Assembly: GCA_027371535.1 (NCBI GenBank)
Contig: DAHXMV010000001.1
Span: 32,879-96,878, forward strand
DNA from: Candidatus Amesbacteria bacterium
GTDB taxonomy: Bacteria; Patescibacteriota; Microgenomatia; CAZETR01; Amesbacteraceae
Reading direction: 5' to 3'
DNA: 64,000 nucleotides
In this document: piece after piece, positions 8,278 through 64,000 of the stretch
How the letters are laid out: every line of letters begins with the position of its first letter
Numbering within the stretch: position 1 is the first letter of the stretch
The notes under the pieces: model-generated
Seen by the model: the letters and a program-made list of their open reading frames with translations, nothing else
Told to the model about the DNA's origin: nothing
The model's database searches: none
Made by a program: the position numbers and the translations under genes

Positions 8278-8384
8278 GATTTAACAATTATAACCTGGAT
8301 TTTGAGAGATCTAAATTATTTTACATCTTGGATTTTAATCTGACATAATTTTCTCTTATAATATGGCAGTTAAACTTAATAATT

Positions 8385-8846
8385 ATGATAAAAGCTATCG
8401 ATGATATTGTTTATAGAATAATAAATACATTTCTCGGACGATATATTATCCGTATAAATCTTTTTCGATACAGAATTTATGGTGATGAAAGCCGATTACA
8501 TTTATCTCAAGAAGCAAATGTTTTGAATGCTTTATTTAATGTAGTCTCCGGGAATATTAATATCGAAAAGGGAGTATTTTTTGGACATAATGTTTGTTTA
8601 TTAACTGGAACTCACAATTACCTAAGTTCGGGAGCCTCAAGAAGAAAAGATGTTCCATCTACTGGACGGGATATCACCGTCAAACAAGGTGCCTGGTTAG
8701 CATCAAATGTGACTGTGTTAGGACCTTGTATAATTGGTGAAAATGCCGTGGTAGCAGCCAATTCTCTGGTTATCCATAATGTACAAGCAAATACATTAGT
8801 AGCTGGAACACCTGCAAGAATAATTAAATATTTAAAAAATAGATAA
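8385..8846 (+). CDS. hexapeptide-repeat (left-handed beta-helix) O-acetyltransferase
   Basis: Hexapeptide repeats (VTVLGPCIIGENAVVAANSLVIHNV, AGTPARII) resembling maltose/galactoside or WbbJ-type sugar O-acetyltransferases. Confidence 0.8.
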   Translation: MIKAIDDIVYRIINTFLGRYIIRINLFRYRIYGDESRLHLSQEANVLNALFNVVSGNINIEKGVFFGHNVCLLTGTHNYLSSGASRRKDVPSTGRDITVKQGAWLASNVTVLGPCIIGENAVVAANSLVIHNVQANTLVAGTPARIIKYLKNR

Positions 8847-8847
8847 A

Positions 8848-9969
8848 TTAGTTAACCGTATCATCATTCATAGTTTTTTCATATATATGGTCTGTTAGTT
8901 CTATAGTATGATTCCAAGTATATTTTTCGGCTAAAACTCTCCCCTTGCCTACTCGAGAAGCATGCGACTCCGACACTGCAGTTATTATACTTTGAATTAA
9001 ACTTTCTGGTTGTTTAATATTAAAATATAAGGGTACATCATCGGCTACTTCGTGAAATACAGGTAGATTGCTTGCCACAATTGGTATTTTTTGAGACATA
9101 GCTTCGAGCACCGGAATTCCGAAACCTTCAGCTGATGATGGATATATAACAGCTTTTGCACCACATAAAAGATTAAATAATTGCGATTTTGTTAAACAAC
9201 CAGCAAAATTTATTCTATTATCTATGCCTAATGACCGACTTAGATAGGTTAGTTCGTCAATTTGATGACGATTATCTCCAGTAAAGATTATTTTTAAGTT
9301 TTTAAATATTATTGGATATTTTAATGATGCTTCAGCGAAACATCTGATTAGCATTGAATTGTTTTTGCGATCACCTAGTCCTCCATGACATAATAAATAA
9401 TTACTGAATACATTTGGTTTTGGGGTCCTTAGGTAGAGATTATCGATACCCATTGGTATTACAACTATTTTATTTTTAATTTGATGAAACTTTGAAATAA
9501 CTTCTTTTGAAGTATATTTAGAATTACAAATGATAACTTTTGCCTTATTAATTGAAGAATTTATTTCCCATCTATATAACATTTTGGATATAAATGGAAA
9601 TTTTGAATTTTGAAAGTAATTATGAACGGATAATGGTATCAGATCGTGAACTGTTAATATTGTTTTAAAAGGTGTTATAAATGGAATACCGTAATTCGCT
9701 GTAGCGTGATATAAATCAGGCTTGATTTTTTTCAACAATTCTTCAAGTTGAATCTGTTCCCAATAAAGACGATGGATTTTTAGCGGAATGGTAATATTTT
9801 CGACATTTTTTAAATATAATGGAAGAACAGAAATTACAAAAATACTGTATTTATCTTTATCCAAATAATTTATAATGGCATGAAGGTAATTAGCTATACC
9901 ACCATATGTATTCTCTAGATATCTGCCATCTAAAACCAATTTAATACGATTGAATTTTCTTAAAATCAT
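8848..9969 (-). CDS. glycosyltransferase family 4 (GT-B)
   Basis: KLVLDGRYL N-terminus and [11 protein letters not shown] nucleotide-sugar binding motif. Confidence 0.85.
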   Translation of the reverse strand: MILRKFNRIKLVLDGRYLENTYGGIANYLHAIINYLDKDKYSIFVISVLPLYLKNVENITIPLKIHRLYWEQIQLEELLKKIKPDLYHATANYGIPFITPFKTILTVHDLIPLSVHNYFQNSKFPFISKMLYRWEINSSINKAKVIICNSKYTSKEVISKFHQIKNKIVVIPMGIDNLYLRTPKPNVFSNYLLCHGGLGDRKNNSMLIRCFAEASLKYPIIFKNLKIIFTGDNRHQIDELTYLSRSLGIDNRINFAGCLTKSQLFNLLCGAKAVIYPSSAEGFGIPVLEAMSQKIPIVASNLPVFHEVADDVPLYFNIKQPESLIQSIITAVSESHASRVGKGRVLAEKYTWNHTIELTDHIYEKTMNDDTVN

Positions 9970-10747
9970 TTGTCTTTAAAGATTCGATAATTAGATTGTT
10001 AGTGTGTCCATAATTTAGTATTTTAGATAAAAATGATTTTAATGAATAGTAATTATGGTATGCATATAAATATTTCTTCTTATTTGTTTTAAAACCTGAA
10101 ATTAATAATTCTGTCCTAAGAATTTCCAAGGTATATTTTCTGACATGATTAATTGGATTTATCCCAATTTTCAGATAATTTTCCAAATTTTCGTTTAAAG
10201 GTACAGAAGCAATAAAAATACCACCTTTTTTAGTTATTCTGTTAACCTCCCTCAAGGTTCGAAATATACCACTCGGACTAATGTGCTCTAAAACTTCTGA
10301 TGCAATTACACAATCAAAATAGTTATTTGAATAATGGATATTATCAGATTTTAGACATGTAAATGTTGCATTATGAAACCTTTTATTAGCCTCACTAACG
10401 GATTCTTTAGCTATATCAATCCCATGCCATTCATAATTAGATTGATCTATTTGTAATAATTTTTCTAAATTACAAGATCCGAACCCAATATTTAAAATCT
10501 TTTTGATTTTTTTGTTACCTTTAATCCATTTGGCAATAATATTTAATTTATTCCAGGCCATAGGATATTTCTCTTTAGATGTATCGATTTCAAAGTTTTT
10601 CTTACTCCAATAAATATTTGTATTTCTGTTCTTAATTTCTGGTAATTTACTACTATACAATGCAATAAAAGATTTAAAGTCTCTACTCCTTGCATAACTA
10701 TCTCTTAGTACTTCGAGTTTCAAGGCTTTATTATTTAGATCTTGCAT
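9941..10747 (-). CDS. class I SAM-dependent methyltransferase
   Basis: Motif I (ILNIGFGSCN), then DCVIASEVLEHI (Methyltransf_11/23-like). Confidence 0.8.
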   Translation of the reverse strand: MQDLNNKALKLEVLRDSYARSRDFKSFIALYSSKLPEIKNRNTNIYWSKKNFEIDTSKEKYPMAWNKLNIIAKWIKGNKKIKKILNIGFGSCNLEKLLQIDQSNYEWHGIDIAKESVSEANKRFHNATFTCLKSDNIHYSNNYFDCVIASEVLEHISPSGIFRTLREVNRITKKGGIFIASVPLNENLENYLKIGINPINHVRKYTLEILRTELLISGFKTNKKKYLYAYHNYYSLKSFLSKILNYGHTNNLIIESLKTNDFKKIQSY

Positions 10748-10785
10748 ATTTAAAATATATTATTATACGATTAACTTAATATAAT

Positions 10786-13470
10786 ATGAAATATATATTA
10801 AAATATTGTTTCATTTTTATTATTTCTTTAATAAGTTTAAATTATATTACAAGGGTAACTTTAAAGGCTTACTTCAATATATGGAATCTCGAAAAGGAAT
10901 TATTACCTTATGCAATACACAATAATCAAGTTTATATATTCAACAAAGATATATATTCTTTTGGTGGAAGTTCGAACATAGTAAGTAATAAGCTTTTTAT
11001 TGGAAAATTAGGATTAGATGATTCAATTTTAAATTGGAGAATATCTGATTCTACACTCCCTTTCGAATTATTATGGCATAATTTAGCTTATCTAAATCAA
11101 AATGTATATATTTTGGGTGGAAGTATATTTCCGAATTACCAACCGTATTCTATAAATAATGTCAGTCTTGGCCATATAGACAATTCTGATATTTTACATT
11201 GGATTCAAGTAAACCCCTTACCTGCACCTTTATCATTAGGCTCATCACATACATTTAATGGTTATATTTATTATTCTGGAGGAGGTTTTTGGAATGGCTC
11301 AAATTACGACTTTCCTAAACTTAGTAATAAAGTATATAAAGCCTTAGTTAATATCGATGGGGTTTTGGGTGATTGGCAAGATGCTGGTTTCCTTCCTGAA
11401 CCTTTACTTGGTCATGAAATGACTTTCATTGGAGAGAAAATCTATATTTTTGGCGGTATAAGGAATATTTGCAATCTTCCAACAACGGAATGCTATCCCA
11501 CAACAGGAAATGTGTGGGTATCGTCATTAGATAGTAAGGGTAATATATCTAGCTGGGAGAAAGTTAGTGAACTAGGTGGTGGTCCATCATATCAATTTAT
11601 GCTTATCAATTCGGGTAATTATCTAATTAAACTAGGGGGAAGAGGTAATATACTCCATGGCTCAATTTTAACCGATAATATATTTTTCTCTGAGATCGCA
11701 AGTAATGGCTCAATAGGTCCTTGGAAAGAAAGTAATTATACTTTGCCTTTAAAGCTTTGTTGCTCCGGGGTAGCTCTGAGTGAGAATAGTATTTTCTTAT
11801 TTGGTGGGCATGATGGGAAGACATATTTTAATAATGTATGGAGAGCAAAAATAGCCGATATTGTCAGTGAACCTACTCCTACTCCTACTCCCAAGATTAC
11901 AAAACCTCTGGTGTTTATTCCGGGAATGGGCGGAAGCCTGAATATGAACGCCTTTTTATATAACCAGGATTTAGATCATTCTTACTGGAAATTAGTCAGT
12001 TATGTGTCGCCTTATGACGGATTAATCAAAACCTTTAAAAAAGCCGGTTATGAGATGAATAAAACCCTGTTTATTTATACTTATGACTGGAGAAAGGATA
12101 TTAAAGAACTCACTGTCGACTTTCAGCAGTACATCAGGGACCATGTTTTAACCGGAAAACCCGACGGTACCCAAATCGATGTGGTGGGACATTGTATGGG
12201 GGGATTAATTGCCAGATCAGCGGCAAAAGACGCCTATGCGACTTACATTGATAAAGTAATTACCGCCGGCAGCCCGGTGCTGGGCAGTGCCACTGTCTAC
12301 CCGGTTTGGGAGGGGGCGGAATTGTCAGATATGCCGGATATGCAACGAATTGCAATTCAGATATTATTGCGGATACATCAAAAAGATTACGATGACCAGG
12401 TAACTGAAATTCAGGATATGATACCATCCATTCAGAATTTTTTGCCTGTCTGGAGTTATCTGCAGACAAAAAACGGACAAACAAAGGATCTGTCGAAATT
12501 GACCTGGCAAAACAATTTTTTGGGCGAGCTAAACGGTAACTCAAACAACATGGTCGGCCGGATGAGTATTTTATACGGCAGCGGCTACAATACTCCGGAA
12601 ACGATTAAAGTGGCCGAACCGGAAAGGATCCAGAAGCTGTTAGGAAAATGGATTGACGGCCAACCGACCGGCAAAATATATTCCGACGGGGATGATACGG
12701 TAACCACAAGCAGTGCACATTTGGCGGGAGTGACTCAAATTTCTGAAATTACCAATACAAATCACGGTGAAATAGTATCAGCCATTCCCGGTCAAATGGA
12801 AATAATGAGATATCTGGGGGTTAAAGATGCTGTGGCTACAGAAAACAACAATACGGATGCTCAGAAGTCATTGGCGGTATTTGTAGGGTCGCCGGTGACC
12901 TTTACCGTGGAAAATGGTGAGAAGACTTGGAACCCCAAAGACGGATTGGTGGTAATTACCAATCCCGAAAATGGAAATTATAAGATTCACGTGACCAGCA
13001 TTCTACCGGGGGAATATACGCTATATTTCGGCAGGCTTTTTAAAGGAGATACAGCGTGGGAAGAGGAAACCGGAAATTTTACCGCAGGAGAACCGACAGA
13101 AAGAGAATATATTTATAATGTAAATTTCGACAATAAAAACCTGGGGGGCAATCCCCTCGAAGATGCCATTGAAAGAATGCAGATAATAACGGATACGCTT
13201 TCAAAAGCAGAAAATACCCAGGTTTACAGCCAGGCAGCCAAGGTTTATATGACGCATATCCAGCAGGATCTCAATAATTTAAAAAGCCTAAATACAAATA
13301 ACCCGGAAGCCGGGATAAATTCGATTTTAAAACAGATCAACTTCTCATTAACCAATCTTCATACCTGGAAAATAGTACCCGAAAAATTTGATTTCGGTTC
13401 GGCATTTATAACCCAACAGATGAGACTGGTAAAAGGTGATATGGATCAATATGCCGGTGATATATTGTAG
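10786..13470 (+). CDS. secreted multidomain protein: signal/TM, Kelch-type beta-propeller, TPTPTP linker, lipase-like alpha/beta hydrolase (GHCMGG) and a C-terminal beta-sandwich
   Basis: The N-terminus is hydrophobic. Six or more Kelch-like blades recur as YIFGG / YILGG / YYSGGG / YIFGG / IKLGG / FLFGG. After the linker comes PLVFIPGMGG ... DVVGHCMGGLIARSA ... ITAGSPVLG, which matches lipase class 2 / LCAT / PGAP1-like hydrolases but has Cys at the nucleophile position. Confidence 0.8.
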   Translation: MKYILKYCFIFIISLISLNYITRVTLKAYFNIWNLEKELLPYAIHNNQVYIFNKDIYSFGGSSNIVSNKLFIGKLGLDDSILNWRISDSTLPFELLWHNLAYLNQNVYILGGSIFPNYQPYSINNVSLGHIDNSDILHWIQVNPLPAPLSLGSSHTFNGYIYYSGGGFWNGSNYDFPKLSNKVYKALVNIDGVLGDWQDAGFLPEPLLGHEMTFIGEKIYIFGGIRNICNLPTTECYPTTGNVWVSSLDSKGNISSWEKVSELGGGPSYQFMLINSGNYLIKLGGRGNILHGSILTDNIFFSEIASNGSIGPWKESNYTLPLKLCCSGVALSENSIFLFGGHDGKTYFNNVWRAKIADIVSEPTPTPTPKITKPLVFIPGMGGSLNMNAFLYNQDLDHSYWKLVSYVSPYDGLIKTFKKAGYEMNKTLFIYTYDWRKDIKELTVDFQQYIRDHVLTGKPDGTQIDVVGHCMGGLIARSAAKDAYATYIDKVITAGSPVLGSATVYPVWEGAELSDMPDMQRIAIQILLRIHQKDYDDQVTEIQDMIPSIQNFLPVWSYLQTKNGQTKDLSKLTWQNNFLGELNGNSNNMVGRMSILYGSGYNTPETIKVAEPERIQKLLGKWIDGQPTGKIYSDGDDTVTTSSAHLAGVTQISEITNTNHGEIVSAIPGQMEIMRYLGVKDAVATENNNTDAQKSLAVFVGSPVTFTVENGEKTWNPKDGLVVITNPENGNYKIHVTSILPGEYTLYFGRLFKGDTAWEEETGNFTAGEPTEREYIYNVNFDNKNLGGNPLEDAIERMQIITDTLSKAENTQVYSQAAKVYMTHIQQDLNNLKSLNTNNPEAGINSILKQINFSLTNLHTWKIVPEKFDFGSAFITQQMRLVKGDMDQYAGDIL

Positions 13471-17519: not shown

Positions 17520-20393
17520 TTATATCAACCGGACCTTAATCTCATCGCCGGCGATTATTTCCTGAGCTAGAGTCCTGAATTTGAGCTCATCTATGAAATC
17601 GGCATCGGCGGGCAACGGGGCAGTCAGAATAATTTTCTGATCAAGCCTGGCTCCGGCGGTCTTGCGGGCTTCCTGAACCTGTCTGATTAATTCCCTTAAT
17701 TCCCCTTCAGCCTGAAGACGGGGGGTAATTTTAATATCAACGTCAATTCTGGTTTCACCATCCTGATTAATCCAATCAAGATGTTTCATATTTACCTCAT
17801 CCAGAATCAACCGGCAGACTGATTCAGAAACCTGTTTTTGAGAAGAATAAACCTGTAAAAGATCCAAGGGCTGACGGACTTTGATCTGATTGATTTTTCT
17901 GAAAGACAGAACCATCTCCACAATTTTTCTAGCGGCCCGCATTTCATTAACAAGATTCACTTCTTTATCAGTCAGGCGGCTTTTTTTTGGCCAGCTGCTC
18001 AAATGGACCGATTCCTCTCCCGTAAGATTTTTGAATATGGATTCAGTAATAAAAGGATTAAAAGGGGCCATAATCCGGCATAATACCACTAACACAGTAT
18101 AAAGGGTCTGATGGCAATCAAGCTTATCTGTTTGATTAATTGAAGCAGGACCCACCCTGTCCCGCGAACGGCGGATATACCACAGCGACAGATCGGAAAC
18201 AAAATCCTGAATGGATAAACTGGCCGAAGCTGCGTTATATTTATCCAAAGATCCGGATACAGTATTGATGGTTTCTTTTAATCTGGCAAGTATCCATTCG
18301 TCCAGAACATTCCGCTTCGACGAAGACTTTTGAGCCGGTTTGAAATCATCAATATTTGCATACGTGACAAAGAAATTGTAAATATTCCAGAGCATAAGGT
18401 GAAATTGGCGGCGGGTTTCGTCGGCTTTTTTGTAGCCGAAAAGCAGATTATTTTCCGGATTCTGAAGGGTGAACATCCAACGCATGACATCAGCACCGAT
18501 TTCATCCGCTCCCTCGGAAAATTCAATCATATTCCCGGCAGATTTGTGCATTACCTGGCCTTTTTCGTCCAAAAGGGACGCAAAACCCAGCACTGTATCG
18601 GCCGGATGCGACTTTTTCAAAACCGTACTCATGGCAATTAACGAATAAAACCAGTTTTTAAACTGGCCGGGAAAGGATTCGGTAATGAAATCAGCCGGGA
18701 ACCAGTCTGCGGGCAGAGTGGAAACTCCGACCACGCCGGCGTCCAGCCAGGGATTACCCACATCGGGAATCCGGGAGATAATTTCACCGCAGTTACGGCA
18801 TTTGATTTTGACTTCATCAATCCAGGGTTTGTGAGGAGTATTACCCGCGAATTTATCCCAGCCGGAAACAGCCCGGCTCTGCAGTTCCTCTTTACTGCCG
18901 ATAATTTCAAATTTGTGGCAGACCGGACACTCGTATATCGGAAGGGCCAGACCCCAGTAACGGTTCTTTTTGGAAATCAGCCAGTCATGCATATTTTTAA
19001 GCCAGTCCATTTCCCGCCCCCTGCCAAAACCGGGCAGCCATTTGATTTTGCCGGCATAGCGCATCATCTGTTTCCGGTAGGTAGCCTGCTTTATATCCGT
19101 GGGGTCGGGCTGATCCATGGAAATGTACCATTCATCGGCTACTTTCCAAACCAATTCGGAACGGCAACGCCAACAGGCCGGGTAACGGTGGGTGTAAGAA
19201 AGCAGCCGGAATAAATATTCCCCACCCCGGAAATTTTTAAGGTAGTCAATGATAATTTCAGGATGCTTTTTGGCATTTTGACCTGTAAATTGGCCAAAAC
19301 CATCGAGATAATCCGCACTGTCATTAATGGCCGGAATTACCGGTAACCCCAGCTTCTTTCCCAATTTATGATCTTCTTCACCGGTACTTGTGGAGGTATG
19401 GACCAACCCGGTCCCTTCTTCGACAGTAATGGGCATCAGCAAATTATCCGTGGCAATGGAGATATGAAAATTATCGGGGAATTTATCCAAAGCCGACCTG
19501 ATGATCGGTAAATCATCAAACGGAGACAGGTAGTGCAATCCTACCAACTTTTTTCCGGGCAGGGTTTTTTTAATTTCCGACCCGGGGGCCACGCGGTCCA
19601 GAGTGCCTTTGGCTATCCAAACCTGTTTACCGTTTTCCCAGTCGATTAAAACATAATCCAACTGTTGGTCGACTGCCACAGCAGTATTGGCTGGCAGAGT
19701 CCAGGGAGTGGTGGTCCAAATAAGCAAATATTCATTCGGCCGTTCTTTTATCGGTAACGCCAGAAATACGGAGTCATGGGTGAGTTCCTTGTAATCCTCG
19801 GTTAATATTTCGTGCTGGGATATGGCAGTTTCACACCGGGGACACCAGGGAACCACATCATGGCCTTTATAAATCCAGCCCCGCTGCCAGCATTCTTTCA
19901 AAAAACCCCATATGGCATAATTATTTTCATCAGACATGGTGTAATAAGAATTGTCCCAGTCCATGAAGTAGCCTAATCGCCGGCTTTGTCCGGTCTGAAT
20001 GGCCGAATATTTCCAGACCCGGTCTTTACATTTATTAACAAAATTAGCTACACCGTATGTTTCGATATCTTTTTTAGATTTAAATCCCAATTCTTTTTCC
20101 ACCTCAACTTCCACCCATAAACCCTGACAGTCAAATCCGTTCTGATAACGGCCGGCGTCTCCCTTCATTGTGTGATAACGCTGCCATAAATCTTTGTACG
20201 TCCGGCCCCAGGCATGATGAACACCCATGGGATTATTGGCTGTTATCGGGCCATCCAGAAAAGAAAAGCGTTTTTTTGAAGAATCATTTTTGTGAAGATA
20301 TTTCCGGATGACACCCGAGTCGTTCCACCATTTCAATATTTCTCTTTCCAAAGCCGGGAAATCTACCTGAGAGGAAACGGGTGAAAAAGCCAT
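17520..20393 (-). CDS. ileS: isoleucyl-tRNA synthetase (archaeal/eukaryote-like type)
   Basis: Class I aaRS: HIGH variant (PMGVHHAWGRT), KMSKS variant (VMHKSAGN), editing/CP1 region and Zn-knuckle-like CxxC pairs. The N-terminal pattern (FPALEREILKWW, GPITANN) fits IleRS better than Val/LeuRS. Assignment among Ile/Val is not certain. Confidence 0.75.
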   Translation of the reverse strand: MAFSPVSSQVDFPALEREILKWWNDSGVIRKYLHKNDSSKKRFSFLDGPITANNPMGVHHAWGRTYKDLWQRYHTMKGDAGRYQNGFDCQGLWVEVEVEKELGFKSKKDIETYGVANFVNKCKDRVWKYSAIQTGQSRRLGYFMDWDNSYYTMSDENNYAIWGFLKECWQRGWIYKGHDVVPWCPRCETAISQHEILTEDYKELTHDSVFLALPIKERPNEYLLIWTTTPWTLPANTAVAVDQQLDYVLIDWENGKQVWIAKGTLDRVAPGSEIKKTLPGKKLVGLHYLSPFDDLPIIRSALDKFPDNFHISIATDNLLMPITVEEGTGLVHTSTSTGEEDHKLGKKLGLPVIPAINDSADYLDGFGQFTGQNAKKHPEIIIDYLKNFRGGEYLFRLLSYTHRYPACWRCRSELVWKVADEWYISMDQPDPTDIKQATYRKQMMRYAGKIKWLPGFGRGREMDWLKNMHDWLISKKNRYWGLALPIYECPVCHKFEIIGSKEELQSRAVSGWDKFAGNTPHKPWIDEVKIKCRNCGEIISRIPDVGNPWLDAGVVGVSTLPADWFPADFITESFPGQFKNWFYSLIAMSTVLKKSHPADTVLGFASLLDEKGQVMHKSAGNMIEFSEGADEIGADVMRWMFTLQNPENNLLFGYKKADETRRQFHLMLWNIYNFFVTYANIDDFKPAQKSSSKRNVLDEWILARLKETINTVSGSLDKYNAASASLSIQDFVSDLSLWYIRRSRDRVGPASINQTDKLDCHQTLYTVLVVLCRIMAPFNPFITESIFKNLTGEESVHLSSWPKKSRLTDKEVNLVNEMRAARKIVEMVLSFRKINQIKVRQPLDLLQVYSSQKQVSESVCRLILDEVNMKHLDWINQDGETRIDVDIKITPRLQAEGELRELIRQVQEARKTAGARLDQKIILTAPLPADADFIDELKFRTLAQEIIAGDEIKVRLI

Positions 20394-30702: not shown

Positions 30703-31200
30703 TTACTGCTGGGGAGTGAGGGAGACAGTCTTGCCCGGGGTGACGGTAAATGGATAGGTGGCGGTATAGATGGAATAACCGGCATCATTTCTCAAAGTTA
30801 ATTCCATGGTCGCGTTCTGTATATTGGTATGATAGGTAAAATGTCCGCTGCTCTCGCTGCCTAAAAGCTGTTTATAGGAATAGGTATCATTACCCCCGAG
30901 ACTGGATGAACCCGAAACACCGGTATTTATCTGATTATTTTTAACAGTTGCATCATAAACAATGTTGTATTCCAATTTGGCGGCGTGAATTTTGGTGATG
31001 TTTACAGTGACGTAATGACCATCAGAAGAAAAAGTCAGGGAAGCCGCCGGAGCCTGATTGGGAGGCAGCTGGGCCACCTGGGAGGGAGCCAAAGTCGGGG
31101 TGGGGGCAGTCGGGGCGGAGGCAGGATGCCGGGTGCCGACAAAAATACCGCCGGCGATAAGAACCAGTAAAACACCGACGACAATAAATTGTGTTTTCAT
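30703..31200 (-). CDS. hypothetical secreted/membrane-anchored protein (165 aa)
   Basis: N-terminal TM/signal (FIVVGVLLVLIAGGIFV), a Pro/Ala/Thr-rich linker, then a beta-rich domain. No recognisable family. Confidence 0.55.
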   Translation of the reverse strand: MKTQFIVVGVLLVLIAGGIFVGTRHPASAPTAPTPTLAPSQVAQLPPNQAPAASLTFSSDGHYVTVNITKIHAAKLEYNIVYDATVKNNQINTGVSGSSSLGGNDTYSYKQLLGSESSGHFTYHTNIQNATMELTLRNDAGYSIYTATYPFTVTPGKTVSLTPQQ

Positions 31201-32464: not shown

Positions 32465-32506
32465 TATATTCCATCCAATAATATATTGTGCTACAATGCG
32501 TAACTT

Positions 32507-32692
32507 GTGGACAAACGCGAAACAAAAAATAGGGCAGATCGCAAATTACCATTGCCTGAGCAAAAAGGCAGTTCAGGTTTGATTGATTACCTGAAATTTT
32601 TAACTTATAACATAATTGTCTGGCGGAGAATTCAACAATTCCGTCATGATAATCAAATCAGCGAAGAGGATCTGAAAGATGCCGACGAATAA
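32507..32692 (+). CDS. hypothetical small ORF (61 aa)
   Basis: ORF only, with no homology signal. Lies in the gap between divergent glyQS and the convergent giant gene. Confidence 0.2.
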   Translation: MDKRETKNRADRKLPLPEQKGSSGLIDYLKFLTYNIIVWRRIQQFRHDNQISEEDLKDADE

Positions 32693-32707
32693 AGCGAAGA
32701 ATCTGAA

Positions 32708-35700
32708 TCAGTATACCGGTTCGTAGACAATTTTACGGCGCAGACCGATATCCCGGAGGATTCTGATCAGACGCGGATTGTAGTGCACAAATTCCGCCGG
32801 ATACGGACCTTTGCTGGTACGGTTTAGGTTAATCCCCTGTCTGGCGGCAATTGCCCCGTCAAACTTGATCTGGCTGACGGAGGTATTGACTGTAAATGCC
32901 CCGTCGGTATACAGGATGGCCGAGATATCCGCCGGGTATGCGGCCTGGGTAATATCATACTGGGGCGGAATACCGGTGGGGGTGGGAGTAATGGCCACTC
33001 CATTGCCCAAAGTAATACTTCCCTTTGAAAAAATAGCCAGGAAACCATCCGTGGCCGGATTTGTTTCGGTCATAGTGATTGACCCGCCGATGGTTACCGA
33101 TCCCTGGTCCACCAAAATAATAGCTTTGTTTTGACTTGGAGTAAGACTGGAAATGTCTAACGGGGCTCCGGGGTCTCCGATCGTGGCTCCGCCGGGATCA
33201 TTTATTTCTATCACATACACATTAAACTTCCCTGCCCCGTAATTGAAAGTCATGTAATGATTCGCACTATTGGCAGCAGTGATTGCCGCCTGCAGATCCG
33301 CCGTAGTTGCCAGGGTATTACCGGGCAACATATATGCCCCGCCGCTTTTGGACCGGGATTTGGCTCTTTCCTTCATCGAATCATAGGTATTTTCCGGTTT
33401 GTTGTTCATGAGGGTCCAGGGATTGGACCCGGAGAAGATCCAGTTCATGTTGTTAATAAAATCCGGACGGTTGACATTCACGCCGGTTGATCCGAAAGCA
33501 ATCCCCGGCAGGGGGACCAGCCCGGCCGGAGTCAGAGGCACCTCACCCGGCATGATCACCCAGGGCTGGAATGTGAGGTAAGCCGGAGATATGTTTTCAG
33601 TCAGCGGTCCACCGGCGGCCGTCACATCCCCTCCCTGAACTTCAAAATATGAAGAGTAGGCAGCACACTTGGCCCACACTCCTCCGGGAGGTGTCCGGAT
33701 GCTCTCCTGACAACCCACAGGATTGGAGCTTTTCAAAGCGCTCACACTATAACCGTATTGTGTTCCGCAGACTGCCAAAGCATCGGTCCAGTTGAATACT
33801 GCCGGTCCGGTAGTCGTTTTTACTGCCGGTGGATTGGAAATATCCGATCTGTAAACGTTAAAACCGGAGAGTCCCGCATCCCCGTCCACCCAAGATACCA
33901 GAATATGATTATTGGGTATATTACCATCATCTACCGCGGTCGCCGAACCCGGCGGGTTGGGAGCACAGGGTACCGTAACGGTAGTCCCGCCGATGTTGGT
34001 AGTGCCGGGGGTAGAGCAGGTGCTGTAATCTTTAATTTGCACCAGGTGGCTGCCACAGGTAAGACTCAGGTTATTCACGTAGTTGGTGACGACACCGGAC
34101 TTCACCGTAGATCCGTCAACCAATAGGTCATACGATCCGGCTCCGGCCACCGCCGGCCAACTGACATTTACTCCCTGGTCTGTCTGGGTACACCATATAG
34201 TCGCAGTCGGGTTGGGCGGACCTACCTGGGAACAACACATCGCCGGTCCGCACCAATTACCGATGGCCTCCCCTGAGTCGTTATAAGCCCCGACTGTATA
34301 CATATACCAGGTATCCTGAACAGCTGAAGTGTCAGTATATGATGAGATATCGGGTCCGGTACTCGGCGTGCTAAAAAAACCAGGTGATCTGTACAAATGA
34401 AAACCGGTTTCATTATTGGAATTATCAGTCCAGGTGACATTCATGCTGCCCGTTGAACAGCTACATGAGACGTTACCGGGGGCAACAGGCGTACAGTTAT
34501 TTGCCGTTGTATATTCGGTGTTGCTATCGTGGGTTCCTTTACATGCGTTAGTAGATCTGATAAAGATCGAGTGGCTGCCAACTGCATATCCGGCATTATA
34601 TGCCGTAGTGTAGGGACTGACGGAGATAGCTCCCAAATCCATTCCATCGATCCATAAATGTGAAGCCCCCGAGGTATCCCCACTCCAGTTAATGGTAAAA
34701 GTCCCGCAGTTACCCGTCACATTAGAAATTGAGGGTGTGGAAACGTCATCATATACATCAACTTGTACCTGGTCATTGCTTCCGCAGTTTCCATATAATC
34801 CGTTCGGCCAAATTACCGTGGATGCCTGATTACCCGTGCACTTCCCCCCAGTTTTCGAAGCGGCATTCGATGTAAATAGGTAAGACCCGGCAGTATCAAG
34901 TGTTGTGGTCGCCGACAGACTATTTGAATTTGAATTACTTGCTAATGCCGGTGACCAGCTAGCTCCCTGGGTCAGGTCGGAGGTTGTGTTGGCATGGTAA
35001 ATACTTATAAACCCTATCCCCTCTGCAGCCGTTGAGCTGCCGTTTGCCATAACTGAACTTGCCCCTGTACAATTAGTTGTTGCTGTCACACTACTACCGG
35101 TGATAATGCATTTCTTGTCCACAGAAATAGAACATGTTGGCCATGGCGGATGACAGGACAACATTGGAGCCAAAGGGCCAGCACCGGGATAGCCTGTGTT
35201 CTGATCATTTGGCATTTGATAGAGAAGCGATCCACCATACATTGAACCATCGGGGGAGTTAAAAACCACATCAATCTGCTGAGGCGTAGGTCCGGTAGCG
35301 CCGTTATAACAATCATTGGTGTAATCCAGCTCAAAGTAATGCCAACCGGCTGTCACCTGAACATTAAATCTATGCTGGGCGCTAGTTTGACCATAACACC
35401 ATCCAGAACCCGAATGCTGCAAATTTATGACCGGAGCCGGGGTAGGATTAGTATTGGGGACCCGGTTGTCTATATAAACCTTCACTTCACCCCAACCGGA
35501 AAATTGGGGAGAAATCGCGAAGTTATAGTTGCCTGTTACATCAAAGTACATATACCCCTGCCATATTCCTCCGGTATTTCCACGACACATATACCTCGCA
35601 TCCGTCCCTTCATATAGCCATCCTGCTACATCTGTCGGGGTCCGGCAGTGATTCAGGCCGGGATTGGGACAGGTAAAATCATACCAGTTAAAAGCATTTG

Positions 35701-36241
35701 TAGCATTCCAGATTCCGGTCCACCTTAAAGTACAATAATGATAATCCGGCCCCACACACCCCTTACCGGATGAATCACCCCAGGTATAATAATTGTAATA
35801 AAGACCTTTGGGGTTGTCTTTCGGACAGGCGACTTTTTGGGTCAAATAGGAATTACACAAAAGCGGGTTACTGGAGCTGCCACCACCATTGGAGCTATTC
35901 GAGCAGCAACCTATAGTACCAGTATGTCGTGAACACACACCCCCGATATCGTCACAGCCATTATTATTGGTGGATCCCTGTGAAACTCCCTGGAAAGTTC
36001 CGTCACATGAAGTGGCTGTATTGTTACACGTAAACCAGCTATATTCGAGGTCGGTACAACCGCAAAAACCATTTTTATCGTATTGACAGTTCCAACAGGT
36101 GGATGCTCCATTCGTTCCTAAACAAGTATATGTGCCACATGGGCCGGCTTTAATTTTTTGAACAATTATTGCCGATGAAAGTATTAAAATCAAAAAAATA
36201 CCTAACCCTAACCAAAACTGTTTTCTAAAAGGCGACTTCAT
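32708..36241 (-). CDS. giant (about 1180 aa) secreted Cys-rich surface protein with PA14-like and fibronectin type III-like repeats
   Basis: Signal peptide (MKSPFRKQFWLGLGIFLILILSSAI). A Cys-dense N-terminal module (CGTYTCLGTNGASTCWNCQYDKNGFCGC...). PA14-like hallmarks (YMYFDVTGNYNFAI..VKVYIDN, ASHLWIDGMD). At least two FN3-like units (GFHLYRSP...WYMYTVGAYNDSGE, GFNVYRSD...YGYSVSALKSS). The C-terminal Gly/Thr-rich region may be beta-helical. Start set at the second Met to limit overlap with the upstream gene. Confidence 0.8.
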   Translation of the reverse strand: MKSPFRKQFWLGLGIFLILILSSAIIVQKIKAGPCGTYTCLGTNGASTCWNCQYDKNGFCGCTDLEYSWFTCNNTATSCDGTFQGVSQGSTNNNGCDDIGGVCSRHTGTIGCCSNSSNGGGSSSNPLLCNSYLTQKVACPKDNPKGLYYNYYTWGDSSGKGCVGPDYHYCTLRWTGIWNATNAFNWYDFTCPNPGLNHCRTPTDVAGWLYEGTDARYMCRGNTGGIWQGYMYFDVTGNYNFAISPQFSGWGEVKVYIDNRVPNTNPTPAPVINLQHSGSGWCYGQTSAQHRFNVQVTAGWHYFELDYTNDCYNGATGPTPQQIDVVFNSPDGSMYGGSLLYQMPNDQNTGYPGAGPLAPMLSCHPPWPTCSISVDKKCIITGSSVTATTNCTGASSVMANGSSTAAEGIGFISIYHANTTSDLTQGASWSPALASNSNSNSLSATTTLDTAGSYLFTSNAASKTGGKCTGNQASTVIWPNGLYGNCGSNDQVQVDVYDDVSTPSISNVTGNCGTFTINWSGDTSGASHLWIDGMDLGAISVSPYTTAYNAGYAVGSHSIFIRSTNACKGTHDSNTEYTTANNCTPVAPGNVSCSCSTGSMNVTWTDNSNNETGFHLYRSPGFFSTPSTGPDISSYTDTSAVQDTWYMYTVGAYNDSGEAIGNWCGPAMCCSQVGPPNPTATIWCTQTDQGVNVSWPAVAGAGSYDLLVDGSTVKSGVVTNYVNNLSLTCGSHLVQIKDYSTCSTPGTTNIGGTTVTVPCAPNPPGSATAVDDGNIPNNHILVSWVDGDAGLSGFNVYRSDISNPPAVKTTTGPAVFNWTDALAVCGTQYGYSVSALKSSNPVGCQESIRTPPGGVWAKCAAYSSYFEVQGGDVTAAGGPLTENISPAYLTFQPWVIMPGEVPLTPAGLVPLPGIAFGSTGVNVNRPDFINNMNWIFSGSNPWTLMNNKPENTYDSMKERAKSRSKSGGAYMLPGNTLATTADLQAAITAANSANHYMTFNYGAGKFNVYVIEINDPGGATIGDPGAPLDISSLTPSQNKAIILVDQGSVTIGGSITMTETNPATDGFLAIFSKGSITLGNGVAITPTPTGIPPQYDITQAAYPADISAILYTDGAFTVNTSVSQIKFDGAIAARQGINLNRTSKGPYPAEFVHYNPRLIRILRDIGLRRKIVYEPVY

Positions 36242-36926
36242 GGTTTTTACTCGAATCCGCAAAACTAATCGGTATAATTATGCCAATATCCGGGTTACCG
36301 GAATTTATAAACTTGTCCATTTCGTTTTTGAAGCTCTGGTTATATTTAATTACCAACTGATTAACCGCAGACCGTATTGTCTGCCCATCTCCCCCCGATG
36401 CGACTGAGATTGTAGGTAACAATAGACCAACTGTTATTTCCTGCCCTTTTTTAGCACCGAAAAAATCTGGGTTGCCAGAAATCTGATTTTCTATTTCCTT
36501 TTCATTCCAGGTTATTGCATTTTTATAAGCAATATGGAACATCCTACCATCCTTAAGCTTCATCAATACTGGTATCAAAACCGAGACTTTCTTTTGTTCA
36601 GCATCGTAGTAATAGCCTCTAAAAGTTGCAAGGGCTGTCACTAATCTTTCACCCTCTTTTGTTTTTATCGGTATCGGTTCTCTTATCACTTTGCCGTCTG
36701 ACACTATGCGTAAAAAGAACATGTCCTGAAATTTATCTATGCCATTAAATCCATAATCTGTCCAGTTTTTACCAATATCCGTCTCCATTGTTATCTGTAC
36801 TGGGGGTGGAACAATAACATTTGTCTCTTTATGACTTAATTTCTTAAGTTTAAAGAAAAAAAACAAAATACCGCATAACATTAATACAAGCACAATCAAC
36901 AACATCACAACCACATAATTGCGCAT
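36225..36926 (-). CDS. membrane-anchored protein of unknown function, paralog of the C-terminal domain of ORF 36989-38521
   Basis: N-terminal TM helix. The segment KTKEGERLVTALATFRGYYYDAEQ...IAYKNAITWNEKEIENQISGNPDFF aligns with ETKEGTKLATALAYAPAYFFDREG...ISNYKGAVPWNKQGWDNIALNNPKIY of the upstream gene. Confidence 0.7.
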   Translation of the reverse strand: MRNYVVVMLLIVLVLMLCGILFFFFKLKKLSHKETNVIVPPPVQITMETDIGKNWTDYGFNGIDKFQDMFFLRIVSDGKVIREPIPIKTKEGERLVTALATFRGYYYDAEQKKVSVLIPVLMKLKDGRMFHIAYKNAITWNEKEIENQISGNPDFFGAKKGQEITVGLLLPTISVASGGDGQTIRSAVNQLVIKYNQSFKNEMDKFINSGNPDIGIIIPISFADSSKNHEVAF

Positions 36927-36988
36927 ACAAGAGATAGTATTACAAATTTATCAATATGAGTCAACTTGATCAATCTTAAATATATCCC

Positions 36989-38521
36989 TTAATGCATTCC
37001 GTTATCTACATATACCTTAATTGAAGAATTATTTCCTCCAATTAACAGATCGCCAAGTTCTGTATGCCAACTATCATCGTACGGATATTCCATTTTATAT
37101 ATCCAATCCTTAAAGGCAGGATATGGTTCGTAAACCGGACTGGATTCTGGTAACCTTTTCCATCCATCCCAAGCAGCTGTAGCATAAGCTATCTGACCCG
37201 CATGTATACCAAATACCTGAGAATAAATTTTAGGATTATTTAAAGCTATATTATCCCAACCCTGCTTATTCCAAGGAACGGCACCTTTATAATTTGAAAT
37301 TTCAACTAACCCATCATCAAACTGTGCCGCTCTTATAACATAAATTTTTTCTGGATTGCCTTCTCTGTCGAAAAAATATGCAGGAGCATAAGCTAAAGCA
37401 GTAGCCAATTTAGTTCCTTCCTTTGTCTCAATATCGAACGGATCAGTAAAGACTCTCGAATCACCCCATATAGCAACAAATCCTATACATCCAGTAAAAT
37501 TTCCACTATAAACAATTTCTTTGTATTTTGAAGGTAGACGCGGTGTCGCTTTCATTATGGCCACAATATTATCTGGGATGGGGTAGTTCCAATGTTCATC
37601 GTTCATCGTCATGAGAAATTGTTCGGTAGTTTTATTGCCGATGAAGGTCAACTCAGTCCTTTTACCGGATATGATTTCTAGTCTGCCGGAGAGTTTACCG
37701 GTAGCTGTGGGTTCCATTTGGACAAACATGACATTACCAGCATCGAATCCATGCTCTTTGTTATATCCCCAGGTGGCTGCTATTTCTGATGGGTTTCTGA
37801 AAGCGGGAAAAACTGAACCCGTATCCAATTTATTTTCCCCGCCGACAACACCGGCCATAAGCGTGCCTTTGTCATTGGTAAACAATGCCGGGAAACCAAA
37901 AGGATAGGCAGTAATCATAATTTCCCCGTTGGCATTCATGTAAGTGTATGGCGCCACCTGGGTAATACTCTCCCCATTCCACTCGCCCTTGGTAATCCCG
38001 TTCTTGCCGGTTTCCAGCTTGAATAATCTTTTTGTAAATTCTTCCTTTACCGCACTGCCTTTATACGGGCTGACTTTATCGTTGGGATCCAAAAACTGGT
38101 CCAGTGTCAGTTCGGCGCCGTCATTTTCCGGCAAGGCCAGGGTCATTCCCGGATTGGCAGCGGCAAATTCCTCAGCTTTTATAGCCGGACTGATTGCCCG
38201 GGGGAAATACAATCCCTCAATCATGGTTTCGGTATCCGAAGATATCCCGATTTCATTAATGGTCTCTGATGCCACGGGGGTATTTGGCAGGGTGGCTGTC
38301 CGTGAGGGTACTGGGGTTTTAGTACTAGTTTTATTTATCGTTTCGGTAATTTTTTTCAATACGAAAGTAGCCGAAGCGGAAATAAGTTCAGTAGCTTTTT
38401 GCGTCTGTTCACAAGCCATATCTGATACCACAAAAATTGTGGCTAAAGTTATTAAACCGGCCGTTTTGAGAAATTCTTTTCTGGAAACTCTTTTATAAAG
38501 TGATTCGTTAAAATTTGGCAT
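36989..38521 (-). CDS. secreted protein of unknown function (510 aa) with a Tat-like S-R-K-E-F-L-K signal motif
   Basis: The N-terminus MPNFNESLYKRVSRKEFLKTAGLITLATIFVVSDMAC resembles a twin-arginine signal with RK in place of RR, followed by a Cys that could be a lipobox. The C-terminal domain is paralogous to the downstream gene. Confidence 0.7.
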   Translation of the reverse strand: MPNFNESLYKRVSRKEFLKTAGLITLATIFVVSDMACEQTQKATELISASATFVLKKITETINKTSTKTPVPSRTATLPNTPVASETINEIGISSDTETMIEGLYFPRAISPAIKAEEFAAANPGMTLALPENDGAELTLDQFLDPNDKVSPYKGSAVKEEFTKRLFKLETGKNGITKGEWNGESITQVAPYTYMNANGEIMITAYPFGFPALFTNDKGTLMAGVVGGENKLDTGSVFPAFRNPSEIAATWGYNKEHGFDAGNVMFVQMEPTATGKLSGRLEIISGKRTELTFIGNKTTEQFLMTMNDEHWNYPIPDNIVAIMKATPRLPSKYKEIVYSGNFTGCIGFVAIWGDSRVFTDPFDIETKEGTKLATALAYAPAYFFDREGNPEKIYVIRAAQFDDGLVEISNYKGAVPWNKQGWDNIALNNPKIYSQVFGIHAGQIAYATAAWDGWKRLPESSPVYEPYPAFKDWIYKMEYPYDDSWHTELGDLLIGGNNSSIKVYVDNGMH

Positions 38522-38657
38522 TCTTTATCAAAAAAATCCCGCTACAGGGACGGGATAATTAATCAGGGTTCAACCTACAATAATTGAATATAACTTACAC
38601 AGCAGAAACATCTGATTTGGCTTATTTTACCCCAAGTTTACTACAGGTCAACCTGAA

Positions 38658-59396: not shown

Positions 59397-60170
59397 GTGA
59401 AGTTTTCCATTATCACACCTTCTTTTAATCAGGGGCCATTCTTAGGGGAAACTATTGACAGCGTGATAGGACAAACAGGTAGTTTTCGGATTGAATACTT
59501 TGTCATGGACGGGGGGTCGACAGACAATACGGTTGAGATACTAAAACAGACTGAAAAAGCCCTGAAAAATAATCCCCGGATCAAATTTTACTGGCAGAGC
59601 AGGAAAGACAAAGGCCAGGTTGATGCCATTAACCAGGGTCTAAAAAAAACTACCGGCGATATAGTGGCTTACATTAATTCTGATGATTATTATCTTCCAG
59701 GTGCTTTTTCCCAAATCAAAGAATACTTTGATTTGCATCCTGATAAATTGTGGGTGGCTGGTGACTGTAAAGTGACAGACAGAAGGCTTACCTGGACATT
59801 TTTCTTAAAACATATCTGGCCCGTGGATAAATTCGGTTGGGCTTTACCCGTATTTAACACAATTAATCAACCGGCAGTATTTCTACGCAGCTGCCTGACA
59901 GAGAAAACGGGTGTATTTAATATCACCTACACATATGCATTTGATTATGACTACTGGCTAAGGTGCTGCCGATCCGGTTTACCGGGGAGAATTAACACTG
60001 AACTGGCAGTTTTCCGGATTCATCCGGAATCCAAGGGCAATACCGGTTACATTAAGCAGTTTGGCGAAGATACGGAAGTTGTAAATAAATATACCCAAAA
60101 CCGACTGATAAAGATTGTGCATAAATTTGGCAGATTACTGGTTAACCTCAGTTATAGATACCTGAAGTGA
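59397..60170 (+). CDS. glycosyltransferase family 2
   Basis: FSIITPSFNQGPFL, MDGGSTDNT, and NSDD (DxD). Confidence 0.85.
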   Translation: MKFSIITPSFNQGPFLGETIDSVIGQTGSFRIEYFVMDGGSTDNTVEILKQTEKALKNNPRIKFYWQSRKDKGQVDAINQGLKKTTGDIVAYINSDDYYLPGAFSQIKEYFDLHPDKLWVAGDCKVTDRRLTWTFFLKHIWPVDKFGWALPVFNTINQPAVFLRSCLTEKTGVFNITYTYAFDYDYWLRCCRSGLPGRINTELAVFRIHPESKGNTGYIKQFGEDTEVVNKYTQNRLIKIVHKFGRLLVNLSYRYLK

Positions 60171-61318
60171 ATCAAAAAACAATCATATTTCTCCATCCCC
60201 ATTTTATGAAGCCCGGGGGGGCTTCGAGAGTTGTATTGGAACAAGCATCCGGATTGACTCGGAGGGGGTTGGATTGTGTAATTATTACTACAAAAGCAAG
60301 TCAGGAAGTTATTAAAGGTTATCCTCTGGTTAAAATTAAACAATTATCTAAATTTATTACCGGAGATATTACTTTTTGGCTCCTGTTTGTCGGATTTTAT
60401 AGAAAAATGAAAAAGGAACTGGGATTAATGGAAAACAAGATACTTTACTGCCATTCACTGGCAATATATTGGGGCTGGATTTACAAAGTTTTTAACCCCG
60501 GAGTGGCCTCAGTTTATTACATCCACGATTTAGGTTTACCATTTACCGATTCAGACGCAGAGTTATCAAGTCTGAGGTTAATCCCAAGAAAAATTGCAGA
60601 AATACTCCGGCCGGTTTTCAGGCTGATTAATAGCTCTGTAATTAAATCGGCCGACTATATTGTGGCGAACAGCCAAGCATCAGCAAATTATTTATTTAGC
60701 CACTACCGACGAAAAGCCGATGTTTTGGTTACCCCCGGGGTGAATACAAATACATTCACTACCGGTAAAAGTAAGCGTGACCAAATAATTTCCGTCGGAA
60801 GATTGGACAAGATTAAAAATACCGATGTGGCTATTAAAGCCTTTGCAATATTTACCCTGCGTAATCCCGAAAATAAAACCCAGCTGATTCTGGCGGGAGA
60901 AGGCAAAGAAAAGGAGTCTTTAATCGGGCTGGCAAAAAACTTATCTATACGGGACAGAGTGACTTTCGCAGGCCAAATAAGCCTGAAAGATATACCCCGG
61001 TATTATTCCCAAAGCAAACTGTGTCTGGCAATGTGTCCGGTTGAAGCATTTGGATTATCGGCAGCCGAGTCCATCTGCAGCGGTACCCCAGTCATCGGCA
61101 TAAATCAAAACGGAATTAAAGAGATAGTTAAAAATAATATTGACGGTGTATTAGCAGATAACACTGTGGAAAACGTAGCCGAGGCGATCGAAAAATGTTT
61201 ATCAAAAACCAATTTCCTCAATAAATTAACGCGTAATATATCCCAAAAAATCCGTATGGAATTGGATACAGAAATACAATTAAAGAAGCTGTATAGCTTC
61301 TTTCTCGCGATTAAATAA
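60167..61318 (+). CDS. glycosyltransferase family 4
   Basis: GT-B: EAFGLSAAESICSGTPVIGIN. Confidence 0.85.
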   Translation: MNQKTIIFLHPHFMKPGGASRVVLEQASGLTRRGLDCVIITTKASQEVIKGYPLVKIKQLSKFITGDITFWLLFVGFYRKMKKELGLMENKILYCHSLAIYWGWIYKVFNPGVASVYYIHDLGLPFTDSDAELSSLRLIPRKIAEILRPVFRLINSSVIKSADYIVANSQASANYLFSHYRRKADVLVTPGVNTNTFTTGKSKRDQIISVGRLDKIKNTDVAIKAFAIFTLRNPENKTQLILAGEGKEKESLIGLAKNLSIRDRVTFAGQISLKDIPRYYSQSKLCLAMCPVEAFGLSAAESICSGTPVIGINQNGIKEIVKNNIDGVLADNTVENVAEAIEKCLSKTNFLNKLTRNISQKIRMELDTEIQLKKLYSFFLAIK

Positions 61319-61335
61319 ATATTTATCAGAATATT

Positions 61336-63519: not shown

Positions 63520-64000
63520 AATACATGGCTAACTCTTTCCAGAGCACATAATTATTCCTTTGGGTAAAATCATCAGCTACCCGGTTCCGAAAAATATTTT
63601 TTGGGTGCACTAACGGAAAATCAATTTTTTTTACCTCCAAATTTGAGAATATACTCCTGAATTTAGTATGCGTGGCATCCGGCCTGCCAAAGCCGATGTT
63701 TTCGACCAAATTATCATTCGGAATTATCCCCAGCATTATATTTTTCCACATCATCCAGTTCCACTGGTAATCCCAGGCGGTACTATTCTTACCGGAACGG
63801 ATACCGTTAAATATCAGTTTCCAATAAAACCTTTCCGGCCAATTTTTGAATACCACACCCAAAACCCGGTCAGATTTTTCCTGATAATCGGTAATGTTTA
63901 TGTTGTAGAGTTTCCAGGCCCGTCTCCAGGTAGCCCAGCCGCAGGAATGGCTGTATCGGGAAAAATAGTAACTCCCCTCCCCCCGCTTCCGGCCAAACTG
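63494..64000 (-). CDS. hypothetical protein, 5'-partial (frame open to window end)
   Basis: The reading frame continues without a stop from 64000 down to the stop at 63494. It is Trp-rich (GWATWRRAW, WDYQWNWMMW). Convergent with the membrane protein and overlaps it by 26 nt. Confidence 0.45.
   Translation of the reverse strand, partial: QFGRKRGEGSYYFSRYSHSCGWATWRRAWKLYNINITDYQEKSDRVLGVVFKNWPERFYWKLIFNGIRSGKNSTAWDYQWNWMMWKNIMLGIIPNDNLVENIGFGRPDATHTKFRSIFSNLEVKKIDFPLVHPKNIFRNRVADDFTQRNNYVLWKELAMYFIRRWKKD

Follow-up and report, generated by a model that had tools for sequence, protein, structure and literature searches.

A recurring gene module of predicted exported proteins from unnamed families in a Candidatus Amesbacteria genome

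Introduction

What do three adjacent genes of a Candidatus Amesbacteria genome, none of which falls in a named protein family, make together? The genes lie in a 64,000-nucleotide (nt) stretch of contig DAHXMV010000001.1 (positions 32,879 to 96,878), the whole of which is herein called the window and is numbered from its first letter. An earlier note, written from the letters alone, had described them as a secreted module for attachment. Outside a few cultivated Saccharibacteria, little is known of how Patescibacteria (Candidate Phyla Radiation, CPR) recognize other cells and stay attached to them. Tentatively, and with a chance that falls slightly short of even, we read the genes as a lineage-restricted surface module of Patescibacteria, in which tethered proteins that carry a shared C-terminal domain (herein the C-domain) would be cognate partners of the cysteine-rich head of a giant protein, retaining or maturing its fiber, and in which the stalk and distal domains of the giant protein would bind glycans or another cell. 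The reading starts from the structure of the genes, the paralogy of two of them, the existence of the family that they define, a gene order that recurs, and the joint replacement of a C-domain gene and a head in one contig pair.

Results

Three Adjacent Genes Encode Predicted Exported Proteins

Genes 1, 2, and 3 are adjacent and co-directional on the minus strand and encode proteins of 510, 233, and 1177 residues (aa). Their features are as follows.

36989-38521, minus strand: gene 1, an open reading frame (ORF) of 510 aa; exported, probably lipid-anchored, two-domain protein
38411..38521, minus strand: gene 1 signal, residues 1-37; Tat-like (twin-arginine translocation) S-R-K-E-F-L-K and a short, weakly hydrophobic h-region, ending at Cys37; read from the sequence
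37637..38224, minus strand: gene 1 N-domain, residues ~100-295; β-rich, no named family, predicted local distance difference test (pLDDT) 84-97
36992..37519, minus strand: gene 1 C-domain, residues ~335-510; common to gene 2 (BLASTP, HMMER family, local hidden Markov model [HMM] E 5e-56)
36225-36926, minus strand: gene 2, an ORF of 233 aa; N-terminal signal-anchor helix and C-domain
32708-36241, minus strand: gene 3, an ORF of 1177 aa from its ATG; secreted multidomain giant protein
35867..36145, minus strand: gene 3 Cys-rich head, residues ~33-125; 12 conserved Cys directly after the IKA|G site, then a Gly/Ser linker
35207..35794, minus strand: gene 3 PA14-like region, residues ~150-345; sub-threshold Pfam PA14, weak GLEYA
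33692..34753, minus strand: four FN3-like modules of gene 3, A-B-A'-B', residues ~497-850; from the P0002 alignment and shuffle tests
32711..33664, minus strand: gene 3 C-terminal domain, residues ~860-1177; from near YFEVQGGDV to GLRRKIVYE, predicted short β-strands

The tight, co-directional spacing that had been described is confirmed by the ORFs: 62 nt (not 63) lie between genes 1 and 2, and the start of gene 3 overlaps the stop of gene 2 by 17 nt. An alternative TTG start at 36262 would lengthen gene 3 to 1184 aa. The proteins were also said to match no family that can be named, and our searches agree. Pfam and NCBIfam gave nothing above threshold for any of the three, the sole near miss being PA14 in gene 3; PHROGs gave Ig-like matches only and no family; PADLOC gave no defense-system match; and sequence and profile searches of the PDB gave no significant match. 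The three genes are a real module of predicted exported proteins from unnamed families, as the term "secreted module" had implied. In the full-text literature we found no description of it.

A C-Domain Is Common to Genes 1 and 2

Genes 1 and 2 are clearly homologous (BLASTP E 3e-13, 33% identity; residues 348-443 of gene 1 against 71-162 of gene 2). The homology had been noticed before, as a domain of roughly 90 aa; family alignments carry it to both C termini, giving ~165 to 175 aa (about 170 rather than 90) and a second motif, Y-x-x-S-W-x-x-E...G-(D/N)-P. Across the family the motifs read TK(D/E)GE-LAT, YY-D, L-DG, and a C-terminal Y-N-x-S-W-x-x-E...G-D-P-x-x-G. In gene 2 the C-domain (residues ~60-233) follows a hydrophobic segment (residues 1-31, Kyte-Doolittle 3.38) of the signal-anchor type, and the closest relatives of the protein (P0007, P0011, P0013, P0020) are 32 to 42% identical to it.

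The family surfaced only through exhaustive profile searching. Word-indexed searches of 5.8 billion proteins with genes 1 and 2 returned self-matches alone, and scanning metagenomes with an alignment of gene 2-type proteins gave no locus. When 1.84 billion representative proteins were searched with HMMER and a gene 1 plus gene 2 profile, 33 passed E<=1e-3, about 25 of which bear the C-domain; the sole member carrying a source name is from Patescibacteria. Most C-domain proteins are 200 to 250 aa long with an N-terminal transmembrane (TM) helix, like gene 2, and others have a lipobox Cys and a Pro/Thr linker, like gene 1. Because most members carry one or the other of these anchors, we place the C-domain outside the cytoplasm; genes 1 and 2 belong to two old subtypes and are therefore not recent duplicates. 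Placement of the shared domain in an enzyme family would have spoken against surface display; searches of Pfam, NCBIfam, the PDB, and Foldseek gave no such placement, and the claim stands unrefuted. An hhalign comparison of the C-domain profile with the N-domain of P0017, a gene 1 homolog, was weak (E 0.005, probability 7%).

Gene 1 Combines a Tat-Like Signal, an N-Domain, and the C-Domain

The N terminus of gene 1 reads VSRKEFLKTAGLITLATIFVVSDMAC. Its h-region, TAGLITLATIFVV, is short and weak, resembling that of a cleavable signal, and holds no 19-mer above Kyte-Doolittle 1.6, a weakness of the kind expected of Tat signals. The second Arg of the twin-arginine motif is a Lys (S-R-K-E-F-L-K), the Tat profiles (Pfam PF10518, NCBIfam) give no match at E<=1, and the lipobox D-M-A-C is atypical in having D at position -3. 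The Cys that aligns with Cys37 follows a canonical lipobox in homologs (LGAC, LTGC, LAAC, LTAC, ISAC), and P0017 carries a canonical RRDFLR...LGAC signal, Tat motif plus lipobox, at the equivalent position; this protein matches Pfam TAT_signal (E 0.0016) and is named by NCBI as a Tat-signal protein of Patescibacteria bacterium. The Tat assignment made earlier therefore survives in part: the motif, hydrophobic stretch, and Cys are as described and have a canonical counterpart in P0017, but the R-K pair and the missing profile match fall short of it. Tat export and lipidation of gene 1 are plausible by homology.

The β-rich N-domain recurs in P0012, P0017, P0028, P0029, P0032, and P0036, several of which are other lipoproteins. 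P0028 and P0029 join it to a glycoside hydrolase of family GH10 (Pfam E 1e-50), a fusion which suggests that the domain may associate with polysaccharide or the cell envelope. P0028 (L043, 3156-5273) lies within a surface-glycan locus with Wzy_C, GT4, PMT_2, and carbamoyltransferase genes. Another unnamed C-terminal domain is common to two lipoproteins encoded in tandem on contig L046 (2154-5843), one of which has a Tat-like signal, KRRQVL. One of the two proteins, P0032, also bears the gene 1 N-domain, so that the N-domain is a module used promiscuously among Patescibacteria-type lipoproteins. AlphaFold2 with a 31-sequence family alignment modeled gene 1 at a mean pLDDT of 77.7, both domains being mostly at 80 to 97, and Foldseek found no significant match to this model in the PDB (TM-score ~0.1).

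Gene 3 Has a Cys-Rich Head, a Modular Stalk, and a Conserved C-Terminal Domain

Gene 3 starts with a hydrophobic segment (residues 7-33) that ends at an AXA-like site, IKA|G. The head follows directly, and 12 of the 42 Cys of the protein fall within residues 35-113, in keeping with the Cys-dense N-terminal module of the earlier description; the 12-Cys framework is invariant across three proteins, and an AXA-like site stands directly ahead of the head in all Cys-headed proteins. A word-indexed search of 5.8 billion sequences with gene 3 found only the protein itself and FN3 proteins.

Behind the head, residues 189-260 match positions 14-79 of the 147-position PA14 profile in part, and domain scans give weak GLEYA and CBM60 matches. 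From these profile alignments a resemblance to PA14 is plausible. Of the two short signatures once offered for it, VYIDN does lie inside the PA14-like region, but LWIDG lies in an FN3-like module and the profile score is below threshold. A Cys-containing region without a family match (residues ~363-495) leads to the FN3-like modules, which are borne out by homology: residues 514-839 are collinear with the four annotated FN3 repeats of P0002 (E 4e-13). Shuffle-tested local alignment, and not self-BLAST, which found no repeats, detects the internal periodicity (B/B' z = 13.7, A/A' z = 2.9). The Fn3-like PDB entry 3mpc aligns at E 0.038, and the Pfam FN3 model (PF00041) gives no match at E<=1.

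The C-terminal region had been called Gly/Thr-rich; it is instead a conserved domain with homologs on three other contigs (L036, L038, L041), although without a Pfam or PDB match. The best part of a gene 3 model, residues 1010-1140 (pLDDT 44 to 74, short strands), suggests that this segment could form a β-solenoid.

The Arrangement Recurs in Other Contigs

The arrangement recurs in at least four independent contigs (L036, L037, L038, L041) and in three further contigs, in which a gene 2-type gene overlaps (by 11 or 17 nt) or abuts a long downstream gene. In L037, the end of one gene 2-type gene precedes a second, P0018, so that the C-domain genes stand in tandem; the TAA stop of P0018 immediately abuts the ATG of an ORF with a signal and Cys head (head HMM E 5.5e-4), and the order of two paralogs and a head is the same as in the window. 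In L036, the gene for the C-domain protein P0015 is followed 22 nt downstream by a gene for a 384-aa "mini gene 3" protein made up of a signal, a head with the 12-Cys framework, a Gly/Pro linker, and the C-terminal domain, which aligns with residues 945-1174 of gene 3 (BLASTP 2e-12) and ends in GLRRKIVQE (GLRRKIVYE in gene 3). L038 has the same layout, a C-domain gene (P0014) and then a 384-aa head plus C-terminal-domain protein, and was the one locus returned by a scan with the C-terminal-domain alignment. From the mini protein of L036 it follows that head and C-terminal domain form the conserved core, the PA14/FN3 stalk being an insertion. In L041, from a Patescibacteria metagenome-assembled genome (MAG), P0017 (the Tat lipoprotein with the gene 1 N-domain) is followed by a 188-aa TM protein and then by a protein of >719 aa with a signal, a different Cys-rich head, two PKD-like repeats, and a gene 3-type C-terminal domain (HMM E 1.4e-7). 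The expectation that the genes stay neighbors elsewhere is thus borne out in these four contigs, though the nearest genomes lack the module.

Other family members (L035, L039, L040, L046) have other neighbors, often integrases or insertion sequence (IS) elements. Among the mobile or conflict genes beside family members (L041 6274-6962; L040 575-2539; L039 323-3232; L046 224-1351) are a HEPN/nucleotidyltransferase pair, AbiEii with an IS3 transposase, and phage-type integrases. The mini module of L036 and L038 adjoins ileS and the module of the window adjoins glyS (entry coordinates, window 17520-20393 and L036 3891-6656); the aminoacyl-tRNA synthetase gene beside both module types is probably a coincidence.

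C-Domain Gene and Head Are Replaced Together in One Contig Pair

L036 and L038 come from different samples and are 100% identical over 2034 bp (L036 from 3052 onward, L038 from 996 onward). The identical stretch starts exactly at residue 113 of the mini protein (FGCC, where the head ends), covers the C-terminal domain, and continues into ileS. On the upstream side of this breakpoint, DNA identity drops sharply to about 50 to 70%; signal and head are 31% identical between the contigs and the C-domain proteins 48% identical. C-domain gene and head thus appear to behave as one exchangeable unit, a pattern in the two sequences that suggests a cognate pair, and their joint replacement is the main reason for thinking that the C-domain proteins and the head interact. 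As the source of this variation, a diversity-generating retroelement (DGR) target was rejected by reasoning: the divergence far exceeds adenine-directed mutagenesis and spans two genes.

The Module Occupies a Variable Junction between recO and glyS

RecO, encoded beside gene 1, is 57 to 59% identical to RecO of Candidatus Amesbacteria MAGs, in which the flanking order DUF4012 - recO - [slot] - glyS - 165-aa gene - mraZ - rsmH is kept. The slot spans 32465-38657 of the window. In Amesbacteria-like genomes its cargo differs from one to the next between flanks that are syntenic on both sides.

L003, 2902-2905: recO-glyS slot, empty
L002, 10547-11909: recO-glyS slot with a 295-aa gene and a 134-aa gene
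L004, 10547-11638: recO-glyS slot with two small reverse-strand genes
L005, 10726-11391: recO-glyS slot with murI

Since each relative has a different cargo, the 5.9-kb module is a lineage-specific insertion in a variable junction. We saw no flanking direct or inverted repeats around it that would point to an integration site. GC content at third codon positions (GC3) is uneven within the module, at 0.24 in the gene 1 C-domain, 0.38 in gene 2, and 0.46 in the N-terminal part of gene 1, and climbs from 0.40 to 0.58 along gene 3. Both C-domain coding segments (36228-37561; GC3 0.24 and 0.38) are thus low against the 0.40 to 0.58 found elsewhere in the module (GC of the window, 0.45), a hint that their origin or their constraint differs. 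The module adjoins a glycosyltransferase/DUF4012 envelope cluster in the window.

The leader ahead of gene 1 has the following layout.

38536..38651, minus strand: leader between recO and gene 1; promoter-like site at 38651-38624, then a terminator-like hairpin with a T-run at 38556-38536 (consensus scan)

The hairpin ends 15 nt ahead of the gene 1 ATG and could be a terminator for recO or a regulatory leader. Rfam gave no family over the module region; a sub-threshold NsiR1 match lies in the leader (38529-38651, 25.5 bits against 39).

Two further origins for the module were considered and rejected. For phage or plasmid cargo, IMG/VR held no loci with relatives of the module, tblastn against plasmids and phages gave no match, and BFVD gave no meaningful fold match to the gene 1 model. 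For a known defense system, PADLOC and the other searches gave no supporting match.

Elsewhere in the window, a 165-aa TM-anchored protein without a Pfam match is encoded between glyS and mraZ (30703-31200, minus strand); it is conserved in the same position in L002, L003, and L004 and carries the motif LEYNLIYDATVK...QLLGSESSGKFTYH. Low-GC islands (0.30 to 0.39) at 8001-12000 and 60001-64000 hold glycosyltransferase, hexapeptide-transferase, and methyltransferase genes. The plus strand encodes an 894-aa protein with both Kelch repeats and an LCAT/PGAP1-like lipase domain (10786-13470) and has a 727-aa ORF without a Pfam match (61336-63519).

Discussion

A Proposed Tethered Module and the Points against It

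Taken as a surface module, the genes could work as follows. Gene 1 would leave the cell by a Tat-like or Sec signal, probably as a lipoprotein, with its β-rich N-domain as an extra; gene 2 would be signal-anchored, and both would present the ~170-aa C-domain on the outside of the cytoplasmic membrane. Gene 3, probably coupled translationally to gene 2, would be exported by a Sec-type signal and, when mature, would consist of a disulfide-rich 12-Cys head, a stalk (PA14-like, Ig-like, and four FN3-like modules), and a β-rich C-terminal domain. The tethered C-domain proteins would bind the head as cognate partners, and this binding would hold the fiber on the cell, or mature and assemble it, leaving stalk and distal domains to engage glycans or the surface of another cell. 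A further step, which we put forward as speculative and rather doubtful, is that C-domain and 12-Cys head represent a new class of cognate "holder-head" pairs, swapped as cassettes between Patescibacteria strains to change what the fiber binds.

Several points weigh against the surface-module account. The module is not at the syntenic recO-glyS slot of the closest Amesbacteria genomes. Family members in L035, L039, and L046 are not beside a Cys-headed gene, and the 188-aa middle protein of L041 has no similarity to the C-domain by hhalign. PA14 (PF07691) scores 14.3 bits with whole gene 3 and 16.5 bits with the excised segment, below its cut-off of 24 bits. A single-sequence AlphaFold model of gene 3 is unusable (pLDDT 35), so that the folds of head and C-terminal domain cannot be read from it. 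The joint replacement is a single contig pair and could reflect hitchhiking in a variable island, or a mis-assembly or assembly chimera. Finally, binding, surface location, and the role in attachment or adhesion are things we infer, as are topology and signal cleavage.

Other Explanations

The co-replacement of a head and its adjacent C-domain gene in otherwise identical DNA is a hallmark of toxin/immunity cassettes, and the genes could be read as a polymorphic effector/immunity-like cassette, with the head as a secreted disulfide-rich toxin or inhibitor, the tethered C-domain proteins as immunity proteins, and the rest of gene 3 as delivery. The tandem paralogs of the small partner (window, L037, L040) and the integrases, IS elements, AbiEii, and HEPN/nucleotidyltransferase genes near family members would fit. 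We nevertheless think this unlikely: the module has no toxin or immunity family match in Pfam, NCBIfam, or PADLOC, it is not known to have killing activity, conservation of its Cys framework resembles that of a structural scaffold, and a variable N-terminal part with its partner gene upstream is the reverse of known polymorphic toxin loci. A surface complex for glycan binding or processing, serving nutrient capture or envelope remodeling (of a minimal Sus or cellulosome type) rather than adhesion between cells, would have the N-domain and the PA14-like region bind polysaccharide. The N-domain-GH10 fusions P0028 and P0029 inside glycan-synthesis loci, the weak PA14, GLEYA, and CBM60 matches, and the envelope cluster beside the module point that way. 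Yet Pfam and NCBIfam find no catalytic domain in genes 1 to 3, the PA14 score is below threshold, relatives without the module keep the flanking glycan cluster, and the minimal versions in L036 and L038 have no carbohydrate-binding-like stalk; we hold this explanation to be a little less likely again.

The genes might also be functionally unrelated exported proteins that share one variable slot, their recurrence reflecting hitchhiking in hypervariable islands. That would accord with a junction whose cargo differs in each relative, with GC3 ranging from 0.24 to 0.58 inside the module, and with the several family members that have other neighbors. It is hard to reconcile with an order and a tight coupling (0- to 17-nt junctions) that recur in at least four sequence-divergent contigs, or with a recombination breakpoint lying precisely at a domain boundary, and we regard it as improbable. 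Least credible by far is a chaperone-usher, sortase, or type IV pilus-like fiber with dedicated assembly proteins, to which only the general picture of a large fiber gene with small accessory genes corresponds. Pfam and NCBIfam find no PapD/usher, sortase, or pilin domains, and the proteins have neither an LPXTG motif nor a prepilin-type N terminus; the chaperone/usher-like role that had been floated for genes 1 and 2 is dropped with it. To our knowledge, Patescibacteria are without the outer membrane that an usher requires.

Significance

The module supplies four unnamed domain families, namely the C-domain, the N-domain of gene 1, and the 12-Cys head and C-terminal domain of gene 3, none of which has a Pfam, NCBIfam, or PDB assignment; in kind, the whole would still be a modular surface protein with accessory partners. 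Its gene order is conserved, and one contig pair hints that it diversifies by exchange of cassettes. Should pairing between the tethered proteins and the head prove specific, the module would serve as a compact, testable model of how organisms without sortase-, usher-, or outer-membrane-based systems display surface proteins and switch specificity. Were holders and heads indeed exchanged as cognate cassettes, they would be modular elements, made entirely of unnamed folds, that set the host or partner specificity of episymbiotic ultrasmall bacteria; with no specific pairing, the genes would be an ordinary lineage-specific set of exported proteins. The family is rare, we infer its function, and the cassette observation needs replication.

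Comparison with Known Systems

Gene 3 resembles the multidomain adhesins of gram-positive bacteria in its N-terminal export signal, its four FN3-like modules, its PA14-like stretch, and its large, β-rich modular build. It differs from them in having no LPXTG/sortase signal or other known anchor, a [LIV]Px[TSA]G motif with a C-terminal hydrophobic segment being absent from all three module proteins; in a head and C-terminal domain that belong to no family; and in its pairing with two tethered proteins, whose family is novel. Gene 1, for its part, shares with Tat-exported lipoproteins the S-R-x-x-F-L-K pattern, the short, weak h-region, and the terminal Cys, and has a Tat-annotated homolog in P0017, but departs from them in R-K for R-R, in the lack of a profile match, and in the D at lipobox position -3.

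Like polymorphic toxin/immunity loci (CdiA-CT/CdiI, Rhs, LXG), the module has a variable part and an adjacent small gene exchanged as a cassette beside invariant sequence, in one contig pair; unlike them, its variable part is N-terminal, the partner lies upstream, and no toxin, immunity, or trafficking domain is recognized. With cohesin-dockerin systems there is no sequence similarity, and a disulfide-rich head takes the place of a Ca-binding dockerin, but the proposed logic is alike: a small, specific module would be the point by which an anchored partner holds a secreted protein of modular build.

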